A stretch of DNA of 64,000 nt from an uncultured Alphaproteobacteria bacterium (GTDB lineage Bacteria > Pseudomonadota > Alphaproteobacteria > UBA6615): the NCBI GenBank assembly GCA_964276015.1, contig CAXYDO010000014.1, forward strand, positions 27,199 to 91,198, read 5' to 3'. Shown here one piece after another: positions 26,470 through 49,624 of the stretch. The position numbers and the translations under genes are program-made. The notes under the pieces were generated by a model. That model saw only the letters and a program-made list of their open reading frames with translations, made no database searches and had not been told where the DNA came from. Every line of letters begins with the position of its first letter. The stretch's first letter is position 1.

Positions 26470-27269
26470 TCGCACAGTTGCGCGATGATAGTGGTCATGC
26501 GGGTCAGATTGACCGGTTCGGAAAGTCGATGGTCGCCGTCTTTCACGAGGATCAGTTCCACATCGTCAGACGTGAGCGCGTGCATCAGTTTTTGCGACTG
26601 GGTCCAGGGTACGTCCGGGTCGGCGGTGCCGTGGATCAGCCGAACCGGAAGATCCAGAATGAGAGGCTCGCGCAGGACAAGATGGTCGCGTCCGTCTTCG
26701 AGCAGCGCGCGGGTGATGACATAGGGGTTCTCGGAATATTCCGAGGGGGCCTCGAAGAACCCGTCGGCTGCGATCTGCGCCAGTACGTCGGTACCCAGTC
26801 GGGCAGGCATCAAATCTTCGGTGAAGTCGGCCGCCGCTGCGATGGTGACCAGGCCAGCAACCCGAGGTCCGTTTTCGGAATTCTGCAGTTCCCGTGCTAC
26901 CAGGGTCGCGATCCAGCCGCCCATGGAGGAGCCGACCAATACAAGGTCTCCACTCAATCCAGGCATTGTTGCGCCGACGTGCCGGATGACCGTGAGCGCA
27001 TCGGTAAACCAGCGTCCGATCGTGCCATCACGGAACGCGCCGCCCGACTGGCCGTGGCCGGAATAGTCCAGGCGCAGAAAGCCGCGTCCGGTTTCTTGCG
27101 CCCGAGTCTCCAAAACGGTTGCCTTCTGGCCCGTCATGTCAGACATAAAGCCACCAAGGAACACGACGCCGGGTCCGGGGTCCGGATGCGTCGCCGGGGT
27201 TGCAAAGAATGCGAGCCGCGTGCCGTCTTCGGCCTCGATAAATTCGGGTGAGCTGTTGGTGGAAACCAT
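26430..27269 (-). CDS. alpha/beta hydrolase
   Basis: Only the C-terminal 279 aa of the 650-aa track ORF look real: nucleophile elbow GSSMGGWIA with a downstream Asp/His. The start was set to the ATG at 27269 (MVSTNSS). The rest of the ORF is antisense to the GT4 gene. Confidence 0.6.
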   Translation of the reverse strand: MVSTNSSPEFIEAEDGTRLAFFATPATHPDPGPGVVFLGGFMSDMTGQKATVLETRAQETGRGFLRLDYSGHGQSGGAFRDGTIGRWFTDALTVIRHVGATMPGLSGDLVLVGSSMGGWIATLVARELQNSENGPRVAGLVTIAAAADFTEDLMPARLGTDVLAQIAADGFFEAPSEYSENPYVITRALLEDGRDHLVLREPLILDLPVRLIHGTADPDVPWTQSQKLMHALTSDDVELILVKDGDHRLSEPVNLTRMTTIIAQLCDQLAASKAASPTR

Positions 27270-42497: not shown

Positions 42498-42587
42498 GGA
42501 GGGGTGGCCGAGTGGCTGAAGGCGCACGCTTGGAAAGCGTGTATGCGGGTGACCGTATCGAGGGTTCGAATCCCTCTCCCTCCGCCA
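42498..42587 (+). tRNA. tRNA-Ser (anticodon GGA)
   Basis: GGAGGGGTGGCCGAGTGGCTGAAGGCGCACGCTTGGAAAGCGTG-[long variable arm]-GAGGGTTCGAATCCCTCTCCCTCCGCCA. The 7-bp acceptor stem, anticodon loop TTGGAAA, long extra arm, T-loop TTCGAAT and encoded CCA all fit. Confidence 0.9.
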
Positions 42588-42633
42588 ACATTATCATGCA
42601 TTGTGAGATTCATCGCTTCGGCCAACTGGCCAT
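42576..42633. repeat. Left 58-bp direct repeat (attL core) covering the last 12 nt of tRNA-Ser plus 46 nt downstream
   Basis: CTCCCTCCGCCAA[C]ATTATCATGCATTGTGAGATTCATCGC[T]TCGGCCAACTGGCCAT recurs at 49437..49494 with 56/58 identity. Confidence 0.8.
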
Positions 42634-42775
42634 GTAGTTCGAGTTCGAACTGCCCGCGCTGTTGCGCTGGATGGGCTATGATACGGTCGACCAGTCCACG
42701 CAGCGCTGCGGAAGCTTCATCGCGTACCATTGGATCTGCATGAAGGGCTTCTGACAGGTTTGCGATCTTTTGCTT

Positions 42776-43114
42776 TTAGAGGTCGGCCGCATTGGGGTGC
42801 CACTCGATCGTTGTCGGTTCCTCGTCGTTGAACACCACAAGGTCCGAGAGCCTTGCCTCGAGTTTCCGTAATTTCTCGCCGATAGCTCCGAGCTCGTTGA
42901 CGGTACCTTCGGCGATGGCGTCGACGAGACGCGCAATCTGTCGTTCAAGGTTTGCCCTTTCCTTGGCGTGCGTGTTGCGTCGGCGACGTGCGTCCTTTTG
43001 CAGTCTTTGCAGTTCCGCGTGGTACTCGTCCACAAACGTTTGAACGAGTTCGGGCTCCATCAGCTTGTCTTTCAGCCCACCCAGCACACGGTCCTCTATG
43101 TCTTTGGCAGGCAT
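42776..43114 (-). pseudogene. Fragment of a large serine recombinase (coiled-coil region only)
   Basis: FVDEYHAELQRLQKDA...ERQIARLVDAIAEG...WHPNAADL matches the central coiled-coil segment of recombinase-family proteins. The catalytic N-terminus and C-terminus are missing. Confidence 0.4.
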
Positions 43115-43136: not shown

Positions 43137-43595
43137 CCCTTCTGGCGCGCGGTCGATTACGGAGGCGAGGTGCTCGAAATTTTCGCGACGAAACGCGGGG
43201 ATCGTAGGGCTGCCCTTCAGTTTCTGAAGCGCGCGATGAAGCGGTATGGACATCCGAAAGTGGTTGTCACCGACCGGCTTCGGTCATACCGGGCAGCGAT
43301 GAATGTGATCGGGAATGCCGCCGATCAGGAATACGGCCGCTGGCTGAACAACCGGGCGGAAAACTCACATCAGCCGTTTCGAAGACGGGAAGGGGCGATG
43401 TCGAAATTCAGGGGTGTAAAAACCCTGCAGAAATTCGCCGCCGTTCATGGTTCAACCTTCAACCATTTTAATCTCGACCGCCACCTCAACAGCCGCTCCG
43501 TCTTCAAACAGAACCGCTCCTCCGCGCTGGCCGAGTGGCGTCAACTCCTGGCGCTCGCTAATTCGAGTCTTTTATGGCTTTTAAAAAAAACATGA
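43137..43595 (+). mobile_element. IS6-family (IS26-like) transposase, 5'-truncated remnant (C-terminal ~150 aa)
   Basis: WRAVDYGGEVLEIFATKRGDRRAALQFLKRAMKRYGHPKVVVTDRLRSYRAAMNVIG...GRWLNNRAENSHQPFRRREGAMSKFRGVKTLQKFAAVHGSTFNHFNLDRHL is collinear with IS26 Tnp from about residue 95 onward. Confidence 0.6.
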
Positions 43596-43738
43596 GGTGA
43601 GGGAACAATTTGCTCCCTCACGTCTCAAAACTACGATAAATTTTTATTTGATAGTCGTTCTCAAAACCAAAGATTATCTTTATACGTATAGATCCACATG
43701 TAAATTTGGGTGCTATTTAACAACAAACAGGGAATATC

Positions 43739-44455
43739 ATGGATAAGTTAATTATGCTTAACCCCGCCGATTATGTTGGGGTAAGTTTTTGGATCATTTC
43801 AGCTGCAATGGTCGCCGCTACGTTTTTCTTCTGGGTTGAGCGTGATAGAGCGGTTGGCAAATGGAAAACGTCCCTTACGGTCGCCGCGATGGTAACTGGT
43901 ATTGCGGCCATTCATTATATGTATATGCGCCAAGGTTGGGTCTACACCGGTGAAAGTCCAACGGTCCTTCGGTACGTAGACTGGTTGCTAACTGTCCCGC
44001 TACAGATTGTTGAGTTCTACCTCATCCTGGCTGCAATGACGGCCGTTGCGACCGGATTGTTTTGGCGGCTACTCGTCGCCTCTTTGGTGATGCTGATTGC
44101 TGGTTATCTCGGTGAGGTAAATAGCGCCAATCCAACGGCACTGTGGGGATTCTTCATCGTTGGTATGGCTGGCTGGATTTACATCCTGTACGAAATCTTC
44201 GCAGGCGAAGCGAGCCGCATTAATGCAAGTGAAGGCACTGTCGCTGGCCAGAAGGCTTTCGGGGCACTGCGTTTGATAGTCACCGTCGGGTGGGCTATTT
44301 ACCCGCTCGGCTACATCTACGGATATGTCGGTGGCGGCGATGTCGCTGGGCTTAATCTGATCTACAACTTGGCTGATTTTGTGAACAAAATCGCCTTTGG
44401 AGTAGTGATCTGGGCTGCTGCAACGTCTGATAGCGCCAGCAAACCGGCTTCTTAA
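43739..44455 (+). CDS. proteorhodopsin (light-driven proton pump, DTE motif, predicted blue-tuned)
   Basis: 238 aa with 7 TM helices. RYVDWLLTVPLQIVEF carries the D97/T101/E108 equivalents with Gln at the position-105 equivalent. The Schiff-base Lys is in NLADFVNKIAFG. The protein is collinear with SAR86 GPR/BPR. No signal peptide is present. Confidence 0.9.
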   Translation: MDKLIMLNPADYVGVSFWIISAAMVAATFFFWVERDRAVGKWKTSLTVAAMVTGIAAIHYMYMRQGWVYTGESPTVLRYVDWLLTVPLQIVEFYLILAAMTAVATGLFWRLLVASLVMLIAGYLGEVNSANPTALWGFFIVGMAGWIYILYEIFAGEASRINASEGTVAGQKAFGALRLIVTVGWAIYPLGYIYGYVGGGDVAGLNLIYNLADFVNKIAFGVVIWAAATSDSASKPAS

Positions 44456-44471
44456 TAGTCTGGTAAATGTC

Positions 44472-44512
44472 AAGGTATGTCCGACAGCTGTCGGACATAC
44501 CTTACTTTTTTT
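44472..44512 (+). terminator. rho-independent terminator after the rhodopsin gene
   Basis: Perfect palindrome AAGGTATGTCCGACAG/CTGTCGGACATACCTT (44472..44503) followed by ACTTTTTTT. Confidence 0.7.
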
Positions 44513-44525
44513 AAGGGGGACCGTC

Positions 44526-44930
44526 TTGCACAGGCAATTTGCCAAGAGCTTTCGCGGGGCTACGGAGCAAGCCGTGCCGCGAGTTGGTACAACACAGAGA
44601 TCCGAAGAAGCGTTGGAAGAAGCGATAATAGCGCTCTTGCCCACGAAGAAAAGTTCGCTCTTTAAGGTAGCGCATTCTCATTTTAGCCAATTTGGTAAAT
44701 TACTACGTGGTCGTACCGCATGGGCGGTAAGTGAAGCCGTAACGCTAAGCCCGGCCTGCGCGCAAAATTGGGCCGCGCGGTTACAGGAACAATTGAACAT
44801 CTGCCGCCAAGAATGCGATGTTCTTCCGGTTCAGATTCAATCCGCATTGGCACCATTAGTAAACTATCTCGAGCACGCTACAACGTCCGTTCGAGCACGC
44901 GCGATGGATACTGCGCGTATTTGCGTTTGA
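44526..44930 (+). CDS. hypothetical protein (134 aa) in the slot normally occupied by crtE
   Basis: TTG-start ORF whose TGA overlaps the crtI ATG (TGATG). It shares the island's low GC. No recognisable family. Confidence 0.3.
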   Translation: MHRQFAKSFRGATEQAVPRVGTTQRSEEALEEAIIALLPTKKSSLFKVAHSHFSQFGKLLRGRTAWAVSEAVTLSPACAQNWAARLQEQLNICRQECDVLPVQIQSALAPLVNYLEHATTSVRARAMDTARICV

Positions 44931-46471
44931 TGGAGGCAACCAGAATTTCCGATATTACGCTCGACGCAGAAAACAGCGCGGGACGGGTCATCGTCATTGG
45001 TGGCGGTTTTGGGGGCATGGCTGCAGCTTTGCGTGCACGAGCGATGGGGTTCTCGGTAACTCTTGTTGAGCGGCTCGATCATTTAGGTGGTCGCGCTCAA
45101 GTTTTTGAGCGCGACGGCTTTAAACATGACGCCGGTCCGACTGTTATCACAGCGCCATTTTTGTTTGAAGAATTGTACCAATTATTCGGCGAGAACCTGA
45201 AAGATCACCTCACCTTCACACCACTAGAGCCTTGGTATCGTTACTATTTCCAAGACGGTCGAAGCTTAGACTATAGCGGTGATCAAGACCGAATGGCGGC
45301 CGAAATTAGCAAATTTTGTCCCGCAGACGTGGCCGGTTACGCCGCTCTAGTGGCCGCATCCCGAAAGATTTTTGACGTTGGCTTCACCCAATTAGCCCAT
45401 CGCCCATTCATCAATTTTGGCTCGATGGTTAGACAAATACCGGCGTTGCTTCGTCTCCGCGCAGACCGCTCGGTGAGCGGCCTAGTCGCCAAGCATATCC
45501 GTCACCCTTTATTGCGGCGCGCCTTCTCGATTCAGCCACTTTTGGTTGGTGGCAACCCTTTTACAACAACCTCTATTTATTCTCTAATCCATTACCTTGA
45601 GAGAAAATGGGGGGTGTCTTTTTGCATGGGGGGAACCGGTGCTCTGGTTTCGTCACTTGTGGATTTAATGGCTCGACAAGGTATCGAAATTTTCACTGGC
45701 GTCGACGTTGAGCGCATCGCTATATCAGGGAATAGTGCTAGCGGAGTCATTCTTGCGGATGGCCGCAATTTTCCTGCAGATCACGTCATTTGTAACGCAG
45801 ATCCACCAAACGTCTACCGCACACTATTGTCTGATGGGGGGCGCGTTGCGCGGCGTCGCAAACGCTTGCTTCCCGAGTCGATGACGAAATATTCTATGGG
45901 GCTTTATGTGCTTTTTTTTGGTACCCGTCGGAAATACCCGGAGGTAGCGCATCATACTGTCTGGCTGGGTCAAAGATTTAAGGAATTACTTGCTGACATA
46001 TTTGACCGCGGTCAGTTGTCAGAAGACTTTTCTCTCTACATCCACCGGCCAACTGCGACCGACCCTAGTTTCGCCCCGGAGGGATGTGACAGTTTTTATG
46101 TACTTTGCCCCGTGCCTAATTTGCAGACCGACCTAAATTGGCCGGTAGTCGGTGAAGACCTTCGCAACCGCATCGTTGAAGCTCTTTCGGATACTATATT
46201 ACCCGATTTAAAAAGTCATATCACAAGCGAATTCTGGATGGATCCCAATGATTTTCGAAATGATTACCGCTCTCATCACGGCGCAGGATTCTCAATCGCT
46301 CCAATTTTGCGCCAATCAGCATGGTTCCGTTATCATAACCGCGATCCACATATCGGAAATCTCTACTTCGTTGGAGCCGGCACCCACCCAGGCGCTGGCC
46401 TGCCCGGGGTTGTAAGCTCCGCCAAGGTGGTCGAAACACTGCTCCGCGAAAAATCTATCGCTACCGTCTGA
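44930..46471 (+). CDS. crtI: phytoene desaturase
   Basis: FAD fold RVIVIGGGFGGMAAALR and the CrtI-typical GGNPFTTTSIYSLIHYLE and YFVGAGTHPGAGLPGV motifs. The start was set to the ATG at 44930 (MEATRISD). Confidence 0.9.
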   Translation: MEATRISDITLDAENSAGRVIVIGGGFGGMAAALRARAMGFSVTLVERLDHLGGRAQVFERDGFKHDAGPTVITAPFLFEELYQLFGENLKDHLTFTPLEPWYRYYFQDGRSLDYSGDQDRMAAEISKFCPADVAGYAALVAASRKIFDVGFTQLAHRPFINFGSMVRQIPALLRLRADRSVSGLVAKHIRHPLLRRAFSIQPLLVGGNPFTTTSIYSLIHYLERKWGVSFCMGGTGALVSSLVDLMARQGIEIFTGVDVERIAISGNSASGVILADGRNFPADHVICNADPPNVYRTLLSDGGRVARRRKRLLPESMTKYSMGLYVLFFGTRRKYPEVAHHTVWLGQRFKELLADIFDRGQLSEDFSLYIHRPTATDPSFAPEGCDSFYVLCPVPNLQTDLNWPVVGEDLRNRIVEALSDTILPDLKSHITSEFWMDPNDFRNDYRSHHGAGFSIAPILRQSAWFRYHNRDPHIGNLYFVGAGTHPGAGLPGVVSSAKVVETLLREKSIATV

Positions 46472-46485
46472 GGAGAAATTCGATC

Positions 46486-47421
46486 ATGGGCTGCACCTTC
46501 GGTTCGAAATCAGCTGAAACGGCGGCGAATGAGATTCTCGCAGCGCATGGTAAGTCTTTCTACTGGGCGCGGCGCTTTTTAGGGCCCGTAGCGGCAAGAC
46601 AAGCGACCTTACTCTACGCCTTTTGCCGACGACTTGACGATATCGCGGATGCCGATAGTCCTGGCGGACTAGAACGTTTAAAAGCGATTGATGCGGCCCT
46701 CGCCGTGGGCGTAGCTGACGGCGATGATCACGTCGCCACATTTCTTTCTCTCAGCAGCGAAATCAATCTTCCCGTGAACGCGGCTCGCGATTTAATCGCC
46801 GGGTTAATTTTTGACCAGGGCGAAGTGCTTTTGGCTGATGAAGATGCTCTGATCGTTTACGCGTACCAGGTAGCAGGGACCGTTGGGCTAATGATGTCGC
46901 CAATCCTGGGGCGTCACGACCCCGTAGCCGACGCTTTCGCTATCGACTTGGGGATAGCAATGCAGCTCACTAATATAGCCCGTGATGTCGCCGAAGACGC
47001 TGACTTAGGTCGACGCTATTTACCAGCATCTTGGTGTGGCCCGATCAGCCCGTCAGAGATTCGCCTGGCGAGCGCTTCCCCTCTATCTCCTGGCAGAGAT
47101 GAAGTCGCGGTGGCCGTAGCCAAGGTTCTGGTTCAAGCTGAAACTTTCTACACCTCTGGTCTTGCAGGGTTGGCCTATTTGCCGATCCGCAATGATCTTG
47201 CGATTGGCATTGCGGCAACCGTTTACCAAGCCATTGGCCACCGTTTACGCCGACGCCGCTATGCCTGGTGGAAAAAGCGACAGGTAGTTGGTGTTAGCGG
47301 AAAAATTCTGGCTACTGGGGCAAGCCTGCCGCGGCTCTTTAGCCGCCGTGCGCCAGGCCCTCATGATGAACGGCTTCACCGAGCCTTGAAGGGAATCGCG
47401 AGTGTCGATGCCTTGCACTGA
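46486..47421 (+). CDS. crtB: phytoene synthase
   Basis: Squalene/phytoene synthase motifs: YAFCRRLDDIAD, YQVAGTVGLMM and DLGIAMQLTNIARDV. Confidence 0.85.
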   Translation: MGCTFGSKSAETAANEILAAHGKSFYWARRFLGPVAARQATLLYAFCRRLDDIADADSPGGLERLKAIDAALAVGVADGDDHVATFLSLSSEINLPVNAARDLIAGLIFDQGEVLLADEDALIVYAYQVAGTVGLMMSPILGRHDPVADAFAIDLGIAMQLTNIARDVAEDADLGRRYLPASWCGPISPSEIRLASASPLSPGRDEVAVAVAKVLVQAETFYTSGLAGLAYLPIRNDLAIGIAATVYQAIGHRLRRRRYAWWKKRQVVGVSGKILATGASLPRLFSRRAPGPHDERLHRALKGIASVDALH

Positions 47422-48541
47422 ACAGGCAGCCTATAGAACTGCCGTGATCGGTGGCGGTTGCGCGGGGCTGACACTAGCCCGCCACTTAACCGCTGCTGGA
47501 GTTTCGCCGCTGGCAGTAATTGATCCCGGCGCCAGCCGGCCGGATCATATCTGGGGTTACTGGGATGACGGCGGAGCTAATTTAAGTCTTCCGCGGCCGC
47601 TTTCTTCCGCCTCCTGGCGGCGCTGGGCGGTAATCACGGAACGTCAGAAAGTTGTGTTGAACGGCGATCGCTTCTGCTACAGGGCTCTCTCATCACAGCA
47701 TTATGAAGAGAGTTTGCGCTCGGATATATCGGGCAGTTCGGGAACGTTTGTTAACGCAACTGCCAAGAGTTGCACGCCAACGAAAGACGGTTTTCGACTT
47801 ACCTTGGACAATGATTTTGAACTGTCTGCCGAAGCGGTTTTTGATAGCCGTCCACCAAAACCACCAGTCGGCGCCTTATTACAGCATTTTGGCGGCTGGC
47901 ATGTGCGGATGGAGCGACCAGTTTTTGATACAAAAACTGCGATTTTGATGGATTTTAGAGTTTCCCAGGATGAGGGAATACACTTTATCTACCTGTTACC
48001 CTTTAATGCCGAACATGCCTTGGTTGAATCTACAGTGTTCTCTCCGACGCCCAAGTCGTCGGAGTGGTATGATAGTCAAATCAAAGCCTACTTGTCCGAG
48101 CATTACTCAGGTGTACAAGCCACCATCGAGGGTCGCGAGGCCGGCGTCATCCCGCTTGCGCCGCTAGTTTCTCCGAATTCTTTTGGCACCGCCATTGGGC
48201 TCCGCGCCGCAACGCATAGAGCCTCCAGCGGCTACGCTTTCTCACAAATTCAGATACAGGCGGCAGACTTAGCGTTAGACCTGATAGCGGATCGGCCTGC
48301 GTGTCCACGGCCCGGCTGTGACAGCTTCGAAGCTTGGATGGACAACGTCTTCCTCTCGGTCCTCCGCCGGTCCCCCGACCGCGCCCCGGAAATTTTTCTC
48401 CGCGCGGCGCGTGCCCTTACCGGGGACCAATTCGCTACTTTCATGCGTGGTCAAAGCGGCTGGCCCACTCGCCTCCGGCTAATGTCTGGCCTCCCCCTCG
48501 TATTATTCCTCAGCGCAGCTTTGGACAGAGGGTCGCGATGA
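47402..48541 (+). CDS. crtY: lycopene beta-cyclase
   Basis: N-terminal FAD motif VIGGGCAGLTLA and the CrtY-like FIYLLPF region. It overlaps crtB by 20 nt. Its stop overlaps the blh ATG (ATGA). Confidence 0.8.
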   Translation: MSMPCTEQAAYRTAVIGGGCAGLTLARHLTAAGVSPLAVIDPGASRPDHIWGYWDDGGANLSLPRPLSSASWRRWAVITERQKVVLNGDRFCYRALSSQHYEESLRSDISGSSGTFVNATAKSCTPTKDGFRLTLDNDFELSAEAVFDSRPPKPPVGALLQHFGGWHVRMERPVFDTKTAILMDFRVSQDEGIHFIYLLPFNAEHALVESTVFSPTPKSSEWYDSQIKAYLSEHYSGVQATIEGREAGVIPLAPLVSPNSFGTAIGLRAATHRASSGYAFSQIQIQAADLALDLIADRPACPRPGCDSFEAWMDNVFLSVLRRSPDRAPEIFLRAARALTGDQFATFMRGQSGWPTRLRLMSGLPLVLFLSAALDRGSR

Positions 48542-49342
48542 GCTGGGAGGTATTAATTCCAATGTTGATGGTTTTGTTAGTCGGGTTTCCCCATGGCGCT
48601 GCTGACGGAGTGTTAGCAGTCAATCTAGCACGTCGAGGGACCATCGGGCTCGGCGCATTTTTTGCACTTTACGGAGTAATCACTCTGTCCGCGGCGGCCT
48701 TTTGGTTGTGGCTGCCTGTGCTGAGTTTAATCAGTTTTCTGCTGCTGTCGGTGGTTCATTTTGGGACCCTCGATAGCAGGCACGACCGCCTTGTGGGCCG
48801 GCGCACATTACGTACCCTCGTCCATGGAAGCACCCTTATTTGTATAATTCCGTGGGCGCATGAGAGGGAAGTGACTGAAATCTTCGGGCTTTTAATCAGG
48901 TTCGGAGGTCGTGTGGCTGGTCCAAATCTTGGCTGCCGCCGCTCTGGCATGGGCTATCGGGGTAGTGTGGCTCGGCCTGGCCTTTGGCCCGGCCGGTCAA
49001 CGTGCTGCCGGAGAATTGATTGTAGTAGCAGCCGTTTTAATAATTTTGCCGCCACTCTGGGGGTTCGCTTTATATTTCTGCACCGTTCACTCTTGGCGCC
49101 ATATGAACGCAATTGTGGCCACGCTGGCCCCCTTCGGCCCAGCAGCATTTCGTTTGGTGGCTTTGCTCACACTGGTCAGTTTTCTGCTAGTCATTGCCGG
49201 GGCGCTCGTCTTGCCGGCAGTAGATATCGACAGCGGGGTTATCCGGGCGACCTTTATTTCGCTGGCAGCCTTAACTGTGCCTCATTTTCTCCTGATTGAT
49301 GTTTACCGCGTTTTGTCACGTCTTAGAGCTACTAGTCGATAA
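48538..49342 (+). pseudogene. blh: beta-carotene 15,15'-dioxygenase (Brp/Blh family), split by a +1 frameshift near 48880-48915
   Basis: The N-terminal half (MSWEVLIPMLMVLLVGFPHGAADG...SVVHFGTLD) is in frame 1 from 48538. The C-terminal half (WLVQILAAAALAWAIG...FCTVHSWRHM...LTVPHFLL) is in frame 2 (track ORF 48911..49342). Conserved His motifs are split across the two frames. Confidence 0.55.
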
Positions 49343-49436
49343 GAGCCGTAATGGACCGCCACCATCCCCTCGCCGGGCAGCCGGTTCTGCGACTACGCGA
49401 TTGTCTGATGTATCCACTGGCGTTGCCGACAGCACC

Positions 49437-49494
49437 CTCCCTCCGCCAAGATTATCATGCATTGTGAGATTCATCGCCTCGGCCAACTGGCCAT
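49437..49494. repeat. Right 58-bp direct repeat (attR core)
   Basis: Copy of the tRNA-Ser 3' end plus downstream sequence. See 42576..42633. Confidence 0.8.
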
Positions 49495-49624
49495 TTCGGT
49501 GCCCTGCGGCATGGTCGACGGTCTCCCCGTCGGGCTGATGATCGTCGGCAAACGCTACGAAGAAGCCACCGTTTTGCGGGTTGCAGAGGCGTTCGAACAA
49601 TCGGGCGATTGGCACAGCATGTAA
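49481..49624 (+). pseudogene. 3'-terminal remnant of an amidase-signature gene (~45 codons)
   Basis: The frame reads ...GQLAISVPCGMVDGLPVGLMIVGKRYEEATVLRVAEAFEQSGDWHSM*, a typical amidase C-terminus (compare the intact amidase at 60716..62119). It starts inside the attR repeat. Confidence 0.35.

Follow-up and report, generated by a model that had tools for sequence, protein, structure and literature searches.

We analyzed a stretch of 64,000 nucleotides (hereafter the window; positions 27,199 to 91,198 of contig CAXYDO010000014.1, assembly GCA_964276015.1) from a host that the source labels describe as an uncultured alphaproteobacterium, with a GC content of about 60%. The window carries a single rhodopsin gene, which encodes a proteorhodopsin (PR) and heads a cassette (43623-49343) with the gene order PR-crtE-crtI-crtB-crtY-blh (Table 1). 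A preliminary description of the sequence had singled out the PR gene for the residues of its product, the missing signal peptide and a terminator of its own. We conclude, with a probability that we put at about 85%, that the PR gene is intact and that its product is a typical blue-type PR proton pump, the flagged traits of which are normal for its large clade. The only part of the locus that is out of the ordinary is its genomic context, which the preliminary description had not seen: the acquisition of the cassette, a deletion in crtE and an insertion in blh.

The proteorhodopsin gene and its product

The PR open reading frame (ORF) cannot be extended upstream, as no earlier start codon follows the preceding stop in the ORF listing. 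Its product matched the Pfam profile PF01036 (Bac_rhodopsin) with E = 1.8e-46, residues 14-229 aligning to profile positions 4-222 of 224; a search of NCBIfam returned no model matching the rhodopsin. Helix C (residues 78-93, RYVDWLLTVPLQIVEF) contains Asp81, Thr85 and Glu92, the DTE motif noted in the preliminary description, as well as Gln89 at the blue-type tuning site eight residues after the Asp. In the alignment to the green-absorbing PR (GPR), Arg78, Asp81, Thr85 (+4), Gln89 (+8) and Glu92 (+11) correspond to R94, D97, T101, position 105 and E108, respectively. The retinal Lys was likewise found in helix G where it had been placed: Asp213, Asn216 and Lys217 of the segment DFVNK align with D227, N230 and K231 of GPR ('ladfvnk'). 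Furthermore, His59 in AAIHYMYMR corresponds to H75 of GPR ('afwhymymr'), the helix-B His that pairs with the acceptor Asp, and the pocket residues M118, G122, W146, W185, Y188 and P189 align with M134, G138, W159, W197, Y200 and P201 of GPR.

A search of the PDB ranked the blue-absorbing PR (BPR) of Med12 first (4jq6, E = 2.6e-83), with GPR (2l6x, E = 2.3e-78) and the HOT75 BPR (4kly, E = 3.1e-76) also among the matches. The top seven distinct sequences were all PRs and scored 256-282 bits, whereas xanthorhodopsin reached 66 bits and bacteriorhodopsin and the sodium pumps about 40 bits. PR is 58% identical to the Med12 BPR and 56% identical to GPR. Together, the residue alignment, the PDB ranking and every other test that was run agree with the initial reading of PR as a blue-type DTE proteorhodopsin.

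The N-terminus of PR reads MDKLIMLNPADYVGVSFW. When PR was aligned to 4jq6 and 2l6x, only about 12 residues (MDKLIMLNPADY), which are polar or weakly hydrophobic, preceded the helix-A segment; PR thus lacks a signal peptide, as the preliminary description had stated. Helix A would instead act as an uncleaved N-out anchor at insertion, as is normal for the clade.

The strong terminator that had been attributed to the gene was also borne out. The hairpin (44472-44503) consists of a perfectly paired stem of 14 bp (palindromic arms of 16 nt) with a 4-nt loop and is followed by the T-run ACTTTTTTTA. Its folding energy was -27.3 kcal/mol (z = -4.3), and 0 of 200 shuffled sequences folded equally well. 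In reference-genome loci the 90 nt past the PR stop codon also folded strongly, at -19 to -46 kcal/mol, and a terminator after PR is therefore the rule. Such a hairpin could uncouple high expression of PR from that of the downstream carotenoid genes. On the 5' side, homology to six other contigs starts at 43623-43627, that is, 112-116 nt upstream of PR, and it is with this leader that the sequence common to the cassettes begins on the left. The promoter-like sequence TTGATA-18-GATTAT at 43648-43677 within this leader was not above chance expectation.

Prevalence of the proteorhodopsin features

A word-based protein search of a collection of 5.8 billion proteins supplied the 120 best homologs of PR, 119 of which could be scored. 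All 119 combined the DTE motif with Gln at the tuning position and had the same short N-terminus, and the distinctiveness that the preliminary description had implied for PR therefore did not hold up. In nearly all of the scored homologs the DY.G motif is preceded by about 10 residues and the total length is 236-239 aa; the named ones include Parvularcula sp. IMCC14364, Pseudovibrio, Nisaea, metagenome-assembled genomes of 'Ca. Endolissoclinum' and Halioglobus.

A set of 80 reference-genome loci split cleanly. Every PR at least about 67% identical to that of the window starts just before helix A and is devoid of a signal peptide, whereas the remoter SAR11-type PRs (at most 64% identity) carry the signal peptide MKKLKLFAL...ANA. 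The short N-terminus was found in Pseudovibrio, SAR116, Shimia, Henriciella, Marinicaulis, Vibrio caribbeanicus, Photobacterium angustum, Glaciecola HTCC2999, Pseudoalteromonas, Methylophilaceae and one subgroup of Pelagibacteraceae. A scan of the reference genomes did not recover the host species, the best match being a SAR116 single-cell genome at 86% identity. A scan of metagenome contigs with the PR protein gave at least 600 matches, none above 86% identity among the matches listed. Viral contigs yielded only rhodopsins that were 42-50% identical to PR, with no sign among them of a phage carrying the PR cassette. Judged by these sequence comparisons, the rhodopsin itself is a further member of a recognised and very large clade, and textbook residues suffice to predict its function and colour.

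The crtE deletion and a possible frameshift in blh

PR, crtI, crtB and crtY are intact in the window, whereas crtE is damaged and blh may be. All six genes are intact in some sibling copies of the cassette at the same site and in the donor-type copies, which lie on the contigs of another lineage that are described further below.

Table 1. Positions, in the window, of the features at the proteorhodopsin locus
Feature	Position	Strand	Remarks
tRNA-Ser(GGA)	42498-42587	+	variable region starts at tRNA 3' end
58-nt direct repeat, left copy	42576-42633	.	last 12 nt of tRNA plus 46 nt
Serine-recombinase-like gene, broken remnants	42600-43114	-	homologous ORF in relative L085 carries Zn_ribbon_recom
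IS240/IS6-family transposase, internal fragment	43143-43546	+	both ends truncated, terminal repeats absent
Conserved 5' leader/promoter region of PR	43623-43738	+	left end of stretch common to donor-type cassettes
PR gene	43739-44455	+	238 aa; DTE, Gln at tuning position 105, Schiff-base Lys217, signal peptide absent
Intrinsic-terminator-like hairpin and T-run	44472-44512	+	between PR and crtE remnant; conserved in all cassette copies
crtE (GGPP synthase) remnant	44526-44930	+	134-aa open ORF ending at crtI start
crtI, phytoene desaturase	44930-46471	+	513 aa from ATG at 44930, as in relatives
crtB, phytoene synthase	46486-47421	+	
crtY, lycopene cyclase	47402-48541	+	
blh, beta-carotene 15,15'-dioxygenase	48538-49343	+	extra C at 48897
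58-nt direct repeat, right copy	49437-49494	.	97% identical, 93 nt after blh stop codon
Amidase gene, 3' fragment	49495-49623	+	longer (148 aa) in sibling contig L183

Compared with the intact gene of 350 aa, crtE has lost 645 nt (215 codons) internally and in frame. The deletion takes LVHDDICD and the second Asp-rich region, i.e. the catalytic core, and the remnant gave no match to Pfam. The deletion junction (...AAAATTGGGCCG joined to CGCGGTTACAGG...) was found identically in the independent contig L191, which comes from another sample and is 96.6% identical; the deletion is thus real and common to diverged strains. In both deleted strains the remnant is open and ends at the crtI start. In another contig, in which PR is preceded by the same fragments of the recombinase gene and of IS240, crtE is intact (334 aa), and both crtE alleles therefore circulate. 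The L191 gene shows a further in-frame deletion of 12 nt besides the shared junction. As mechanically listed (44768-46471, 567 aa), the crtI ORF starts 54 codons too early, within the crtE remnant.

In blh, one extra base (the C at 48897) shifts the frame at about codon 120. Once this base is removed, the gene encodes a protein of 267 aa that matches an intact cluster of 30 members from end to end at 97% identity. The insertion lies on a T/C polymorphism, the site reading AATAGG in donor-type copies, AACAGG in siblings and AATCAGG in the window, and blh is intact in the sibling contig L183. The extra base may be a consensus or assembly artefact, or it may be a real frameshift; it could also represent an intermediate on a path of insertion followed by compensating deletion.

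Estimates of the ratio of non-synonymous to synonymous substitution (dN/dS) were 0.20-0.26 for PR against donor-type copies and 0.12-0.13 for crtI, including the comparison between the two crtE-deleted strains, values that are based on only 14-43 substitutions. They suggest that the remaining cassette genes are still under constraint. With crtE gutted, retinal synthesis would have to take geranylgeranyl diphosphate (GGPP) from elsewhere, and if the blh insertion is real the cell would rely on external retinal.

The lesions could also be read as the decay of the whole cassette. PR would then be an unused apoprotein heading for loss, and the mobile debris and direct repeats could delete the block. 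The real loss of both Asp-rich motifs from crtE, the extra base in blh, the 58-nt direct repeat bracketing the block and the absence of any other polyprenyl synthase from the 64-kb window all fit this view. However, four of the cassette genes, PR among them, are intact, and dN/dS remains low both for crtI between the two crtE-deleted strains (0.13) and for PR (0.2-0.4). Moreover, the crtE remnant stays in frame to the crtI start in both strains, which fits continued downstream expression with GGPP supplied by a host enzyme, and the blh insertion falls exactly on the polymorphic site, where a consensus error is possible, while the L183 copy is whole. We thus consider it unlikely that the cassette is simply decaying. 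A further possibility, which requires the insertion at 48897 to be real, is that the strain is a natural retinal auxotroph in which an acquired pump, intact and constrained, is run on scavenged chromophore. We regard this as conceivable though doubtful; if true, the strain would offer a snapshot of an acquired photosystem cassette pared down after transfer.

Pumping and colour

As a blue-type PR, the protein is expected to span the membrane with seven helices, to bind all-trans retinal via a Schiff base to Lys217 and to pump protons outward in the light. Asp81, paired with His59, would act as the Schiff-base proton acceptor, with Arg78 and Asp213 completing the counter-ion complex, and Glu92 would be the donor that returns a proton to the Schiff base from the cytoplasm. 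With Gln89 as the colour-switch residue, the absorption is predicted to be blue-shifted. Passages in PMC9325082 and PMC10807816 treat Gln versus Leu at position 105 as the established blue/green switch, and 4jq6, the closest structure to PR, has been called 'the BPR x-ray structure' (PMC10807816). We infer that PR is a light-driven outward proton pump whose predicted absorption lies near 490 nm and not at about 525 nm.

PR might nevertheless pump and absorb green light if other residues offset the Gln at position 105. Its identity to measured BPRs is only about 58%, and the blue colour of the clade member from Photobacterium angustum is itself only 'predicted' (PMC4498439). However, residue 105 is reported to switch the colour robustly, with no partner residues co-evolving with it (PMC10807816), passages in PMC9325082 put a shift of about 20 nm down to the single substitution at this position, and a retinal-restored double mutant of a flotillin-associated rhodopsin (FAR) that carries Gln absorbed at 498 nm (10.1101/2025.04.29.651185). 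Green absorption therefore strikes us as improbable.

The similarity to FARs themselves also bears on the identity of PR. FARs bind no retinal and do not pump, have a flotillin gene alongside and occur as the second rhodopsin of their genomes (10.1101/2023.01.04.522823, 10.1101/2025.04.29.651185). Their motifs are DTT, DTL or DNI (10.1101/2023.01.04.522823). Phe (F57 in PsFAR) replaces the helix-B His and Met the donor Glu, and the retinal pocket is filled by an aromatic residue, His or Phe, beside the motif Thr (H84 in PsFAR; 10.1101/2025.04.29.651185). That PR is such a non-pumping paralog, a retinal-less FAR or else a sensory rhodopsin, is extremely improbable: although FAR structures scored nearly as well in the PDB search (9r23, 240 bits; 9r21, 234 bits) as the true PR PsPR (9r22, 237 bits), with PsFAR reaching a similarity of about 3e-70, retaining the Lys and sharing the Gln at the position-105 equivalent, PR instead has DTE, His59, Glu92, Val86 and Gly122, occurs without a second rhodopsin in the window, belongs to a cassette for retinal synthesis, and has an IS240 fragment and crt genes rather than a flotillin gene as neighbours. 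By every FAR diagnostic, PR thus falls on the pump side.

Horizontal acquisition of the cassette

The cassette shares 93-98% DNA identity with nine other contigs. A further contig, L002 from run ERR9575721, matches the window at 100% identity over 43579-44501. Contigs with PRs 96-97% identical to that of the window have the same gene order, and the homology ends at 49343, exactly at the blh stop codon. The flanks of the donor-type contigs are unrelated to the window: on the left lie a gene for a binding-protein-like product of 304 aa and PAS genes, and on the right housekeeping genes of the rpoH, purA and serA type. The donor-type backbones, which are labelled Rhodospirillaceae or Alphaproteobacteria, have a GC content of about 52-54%, like the cassette. 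The GC fraction of the cassette was 0.527, as against 0.604 in the window backbone and 0.536 in that of the donor-type contig L179. Because of this high identity to a lineage of about 53% GC with unrelated flanks, we read the cassette as horizontally acquired. The simplest reading would be that the whole cassette recently moved from a Rhodospirillaceae-like lineage of about 53% GC, or a relative of it, into the lineage of 60% GC, in which it would have been gained by the uncultured host at a variable site beside tRNA-Ser.

Two observations accompany this comparison. The PR end of the cassette (43623-44775) is 93-94% identical in nucleotides to the donor-type copies, as opposed to 96-98% for the crtI-blh part (44754-49072), which hints at a mosaic history or at faster change around PR. 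In addition, contig L089 (853-6946) carries the same cassette, cut inside blh and joined to a backbone of 28.5% GC with Flavobacteriaceae-labelled genes. We set it aside as evidence of a cross-phylum transfer, as it is probably chimeric given the cut within blh (a long-read assembly was guessed from the contig name), and used it for sequence comparison only.

The tRNA-Ser site

To the left, the site is flanked by pheT, lepA and then tRNA-Ser(GGA); to the right, past the amidase fragment, lie two ABC transporters on the opposite strand. Contigs with a LepA 95% identical to that of the window share the order thrS...pheST-lepA-small ORF-tRNA-Ser and then carry other cargo. In contig L085 (12345-13265) a long serine-recombinase-like ORF follows tRNA-Ser in place of the PR cassette, and in contig L083 (12300-21800) two intact IS240/IS6 copies bracket CMAS, GntR, cupin and TRAP-transporter genes. 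The tRNA-Ser site downstream of lepA is thus a strain-variable hotspot.

As to a tRNA-targeting integrative island, the site gives a mixed picture. The recombinase debris, the insertion sequence (IS) fragment and the PR cassette lie between the two copies of a 58-nt direct repeat, which takes in 12 nt of tRNA-Ser. The left copy comprises the 3' end of tRNA-Ser and the C-terminal coding end of a recombinase-like ORF. However, the recombinase is fragmented, and the cassette-bearing siblings L183 and L184, which occupy the same site and are 98.3-98.8% identical, contain 432 nt of other sequence in place of the right repeat. The right repeat therefore looks like a derived patch and not a classical attR, and the two copies do not form a simple attL/attR pair. 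Mobilisation of the cassette in the manner of IS6/IS26 was likewise unsupported, the IS240 fragment being truncated at both ends and separated from the cassette by 76 nt. These 76 nt (43547-43622) were unmatched in the contigs compared and contain a terminator-like hairpin on the minus strand (43597-43621).

Strength and meaning of the interpretation

Several points weigh against the interpretation developed here. The scans of reference-genome loci used the Gln-containing peptide pattern QIVEFYLI, so that their all-Gln result is biased; the result for the 119 homologs, which came from the word-based protein search, is free of this bias. No spectrum or pumping assay was found for any member within about 70% identity of PR, and for P. 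angustum, as mentioned, the colour is a prediction. Given the crtE deletion and the possible frameshift in blh, formation of the holoprotein in this strain may require retinal from outside. The dN/dS values stem from few substitutions, the direction of transfer is read only from the match in GC content, and the 58-nt repeat is no classical att pair, the siblings having different sequence in place of its right copy.

The context of PR makes up a tidy case of a known phenomenon. The same PR photosystem cassette of about 6 kb occurs in two alphaproteobacterial lineages of different GC content, between unrelated flanks and at 93-98% nucleotide identity, and is as such a clean and recent case of phototrophy spreading laterally, a process deduced from phylogeny long ago. 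Intact and deleted crtE alleles coexist in one lineage. The case also shows which parts of the cassette become dispensable after transfer. The modest twist is that the GGPP synthase, and perhaps the dioxygenase too, has been lost while PR has remained intact.

Comparison with known systems

One of the closest known systems is the short-N-terminus, Gln-type clade of cultured and uncultured Proteobacteria, represented by Pseudovibrio, Parvularcula IMCC14364, Nisaea, SAR116, Photobacterium angustum, Glaciecola HTCC2999 and Methylophilaceae. Its members share with PR the length of 236-239 aa, the motif M..LLNP.DYVGVSFW and the combination of DTE and Gln, at 68-86% identity. There is no categorical difference between them and PR, and the closest sequences of all (96-97%) are metagenome proteins. 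Among characterised proteins, the Med12 (4jq6) and HOT75 (4kly/4knf) BPRs have the DTE motif, Gln105, the helix-B His and the Schiff-base Lys in DxxNK in common with PR. However, identity is only about 58%, and the colour of PR is a prediction. The SAR86 GPR (EBAC31A08; 2l6x, 7b03) belongs to the same family and has the same proton-transfer residues but carries Leu105 where PR has Gln. GPR also possesses a cleavable N-terminal signal peptide, which PR lacks. PsFAR (9r21/9r23), for all its similarity, differs from PR in the missing donor Glu and helix-B His, the blocked pocket and the flotillin neighbour.

With respect to the cassette as a whole, a close parallel is provided by Vibrio sp. AND4 and V. 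campbellii BAA-1116. These strains gained PR-crtEIBY-blh as one linked unit between transposase genes, some of them truncated, and the PR cluster has another ancestry than the genes around it (PMC2860489, PMC3380642). The acquisition of PR together with the retinal genes, near transposase genes, is shared with the window. In contrast to the PR of the window, which is of the Gln type and has no signal peptide, the Vibrio PRs are green (Leu105), possess a signal peptide and have IS5-family neighbours. The window cassette in turn differs from the Vibrio clusters in its position at a tRNA-Ser hotspot, in the serine-recombinase and IS6/IS240 debris beside it, and in the internal deletion of its crtE.

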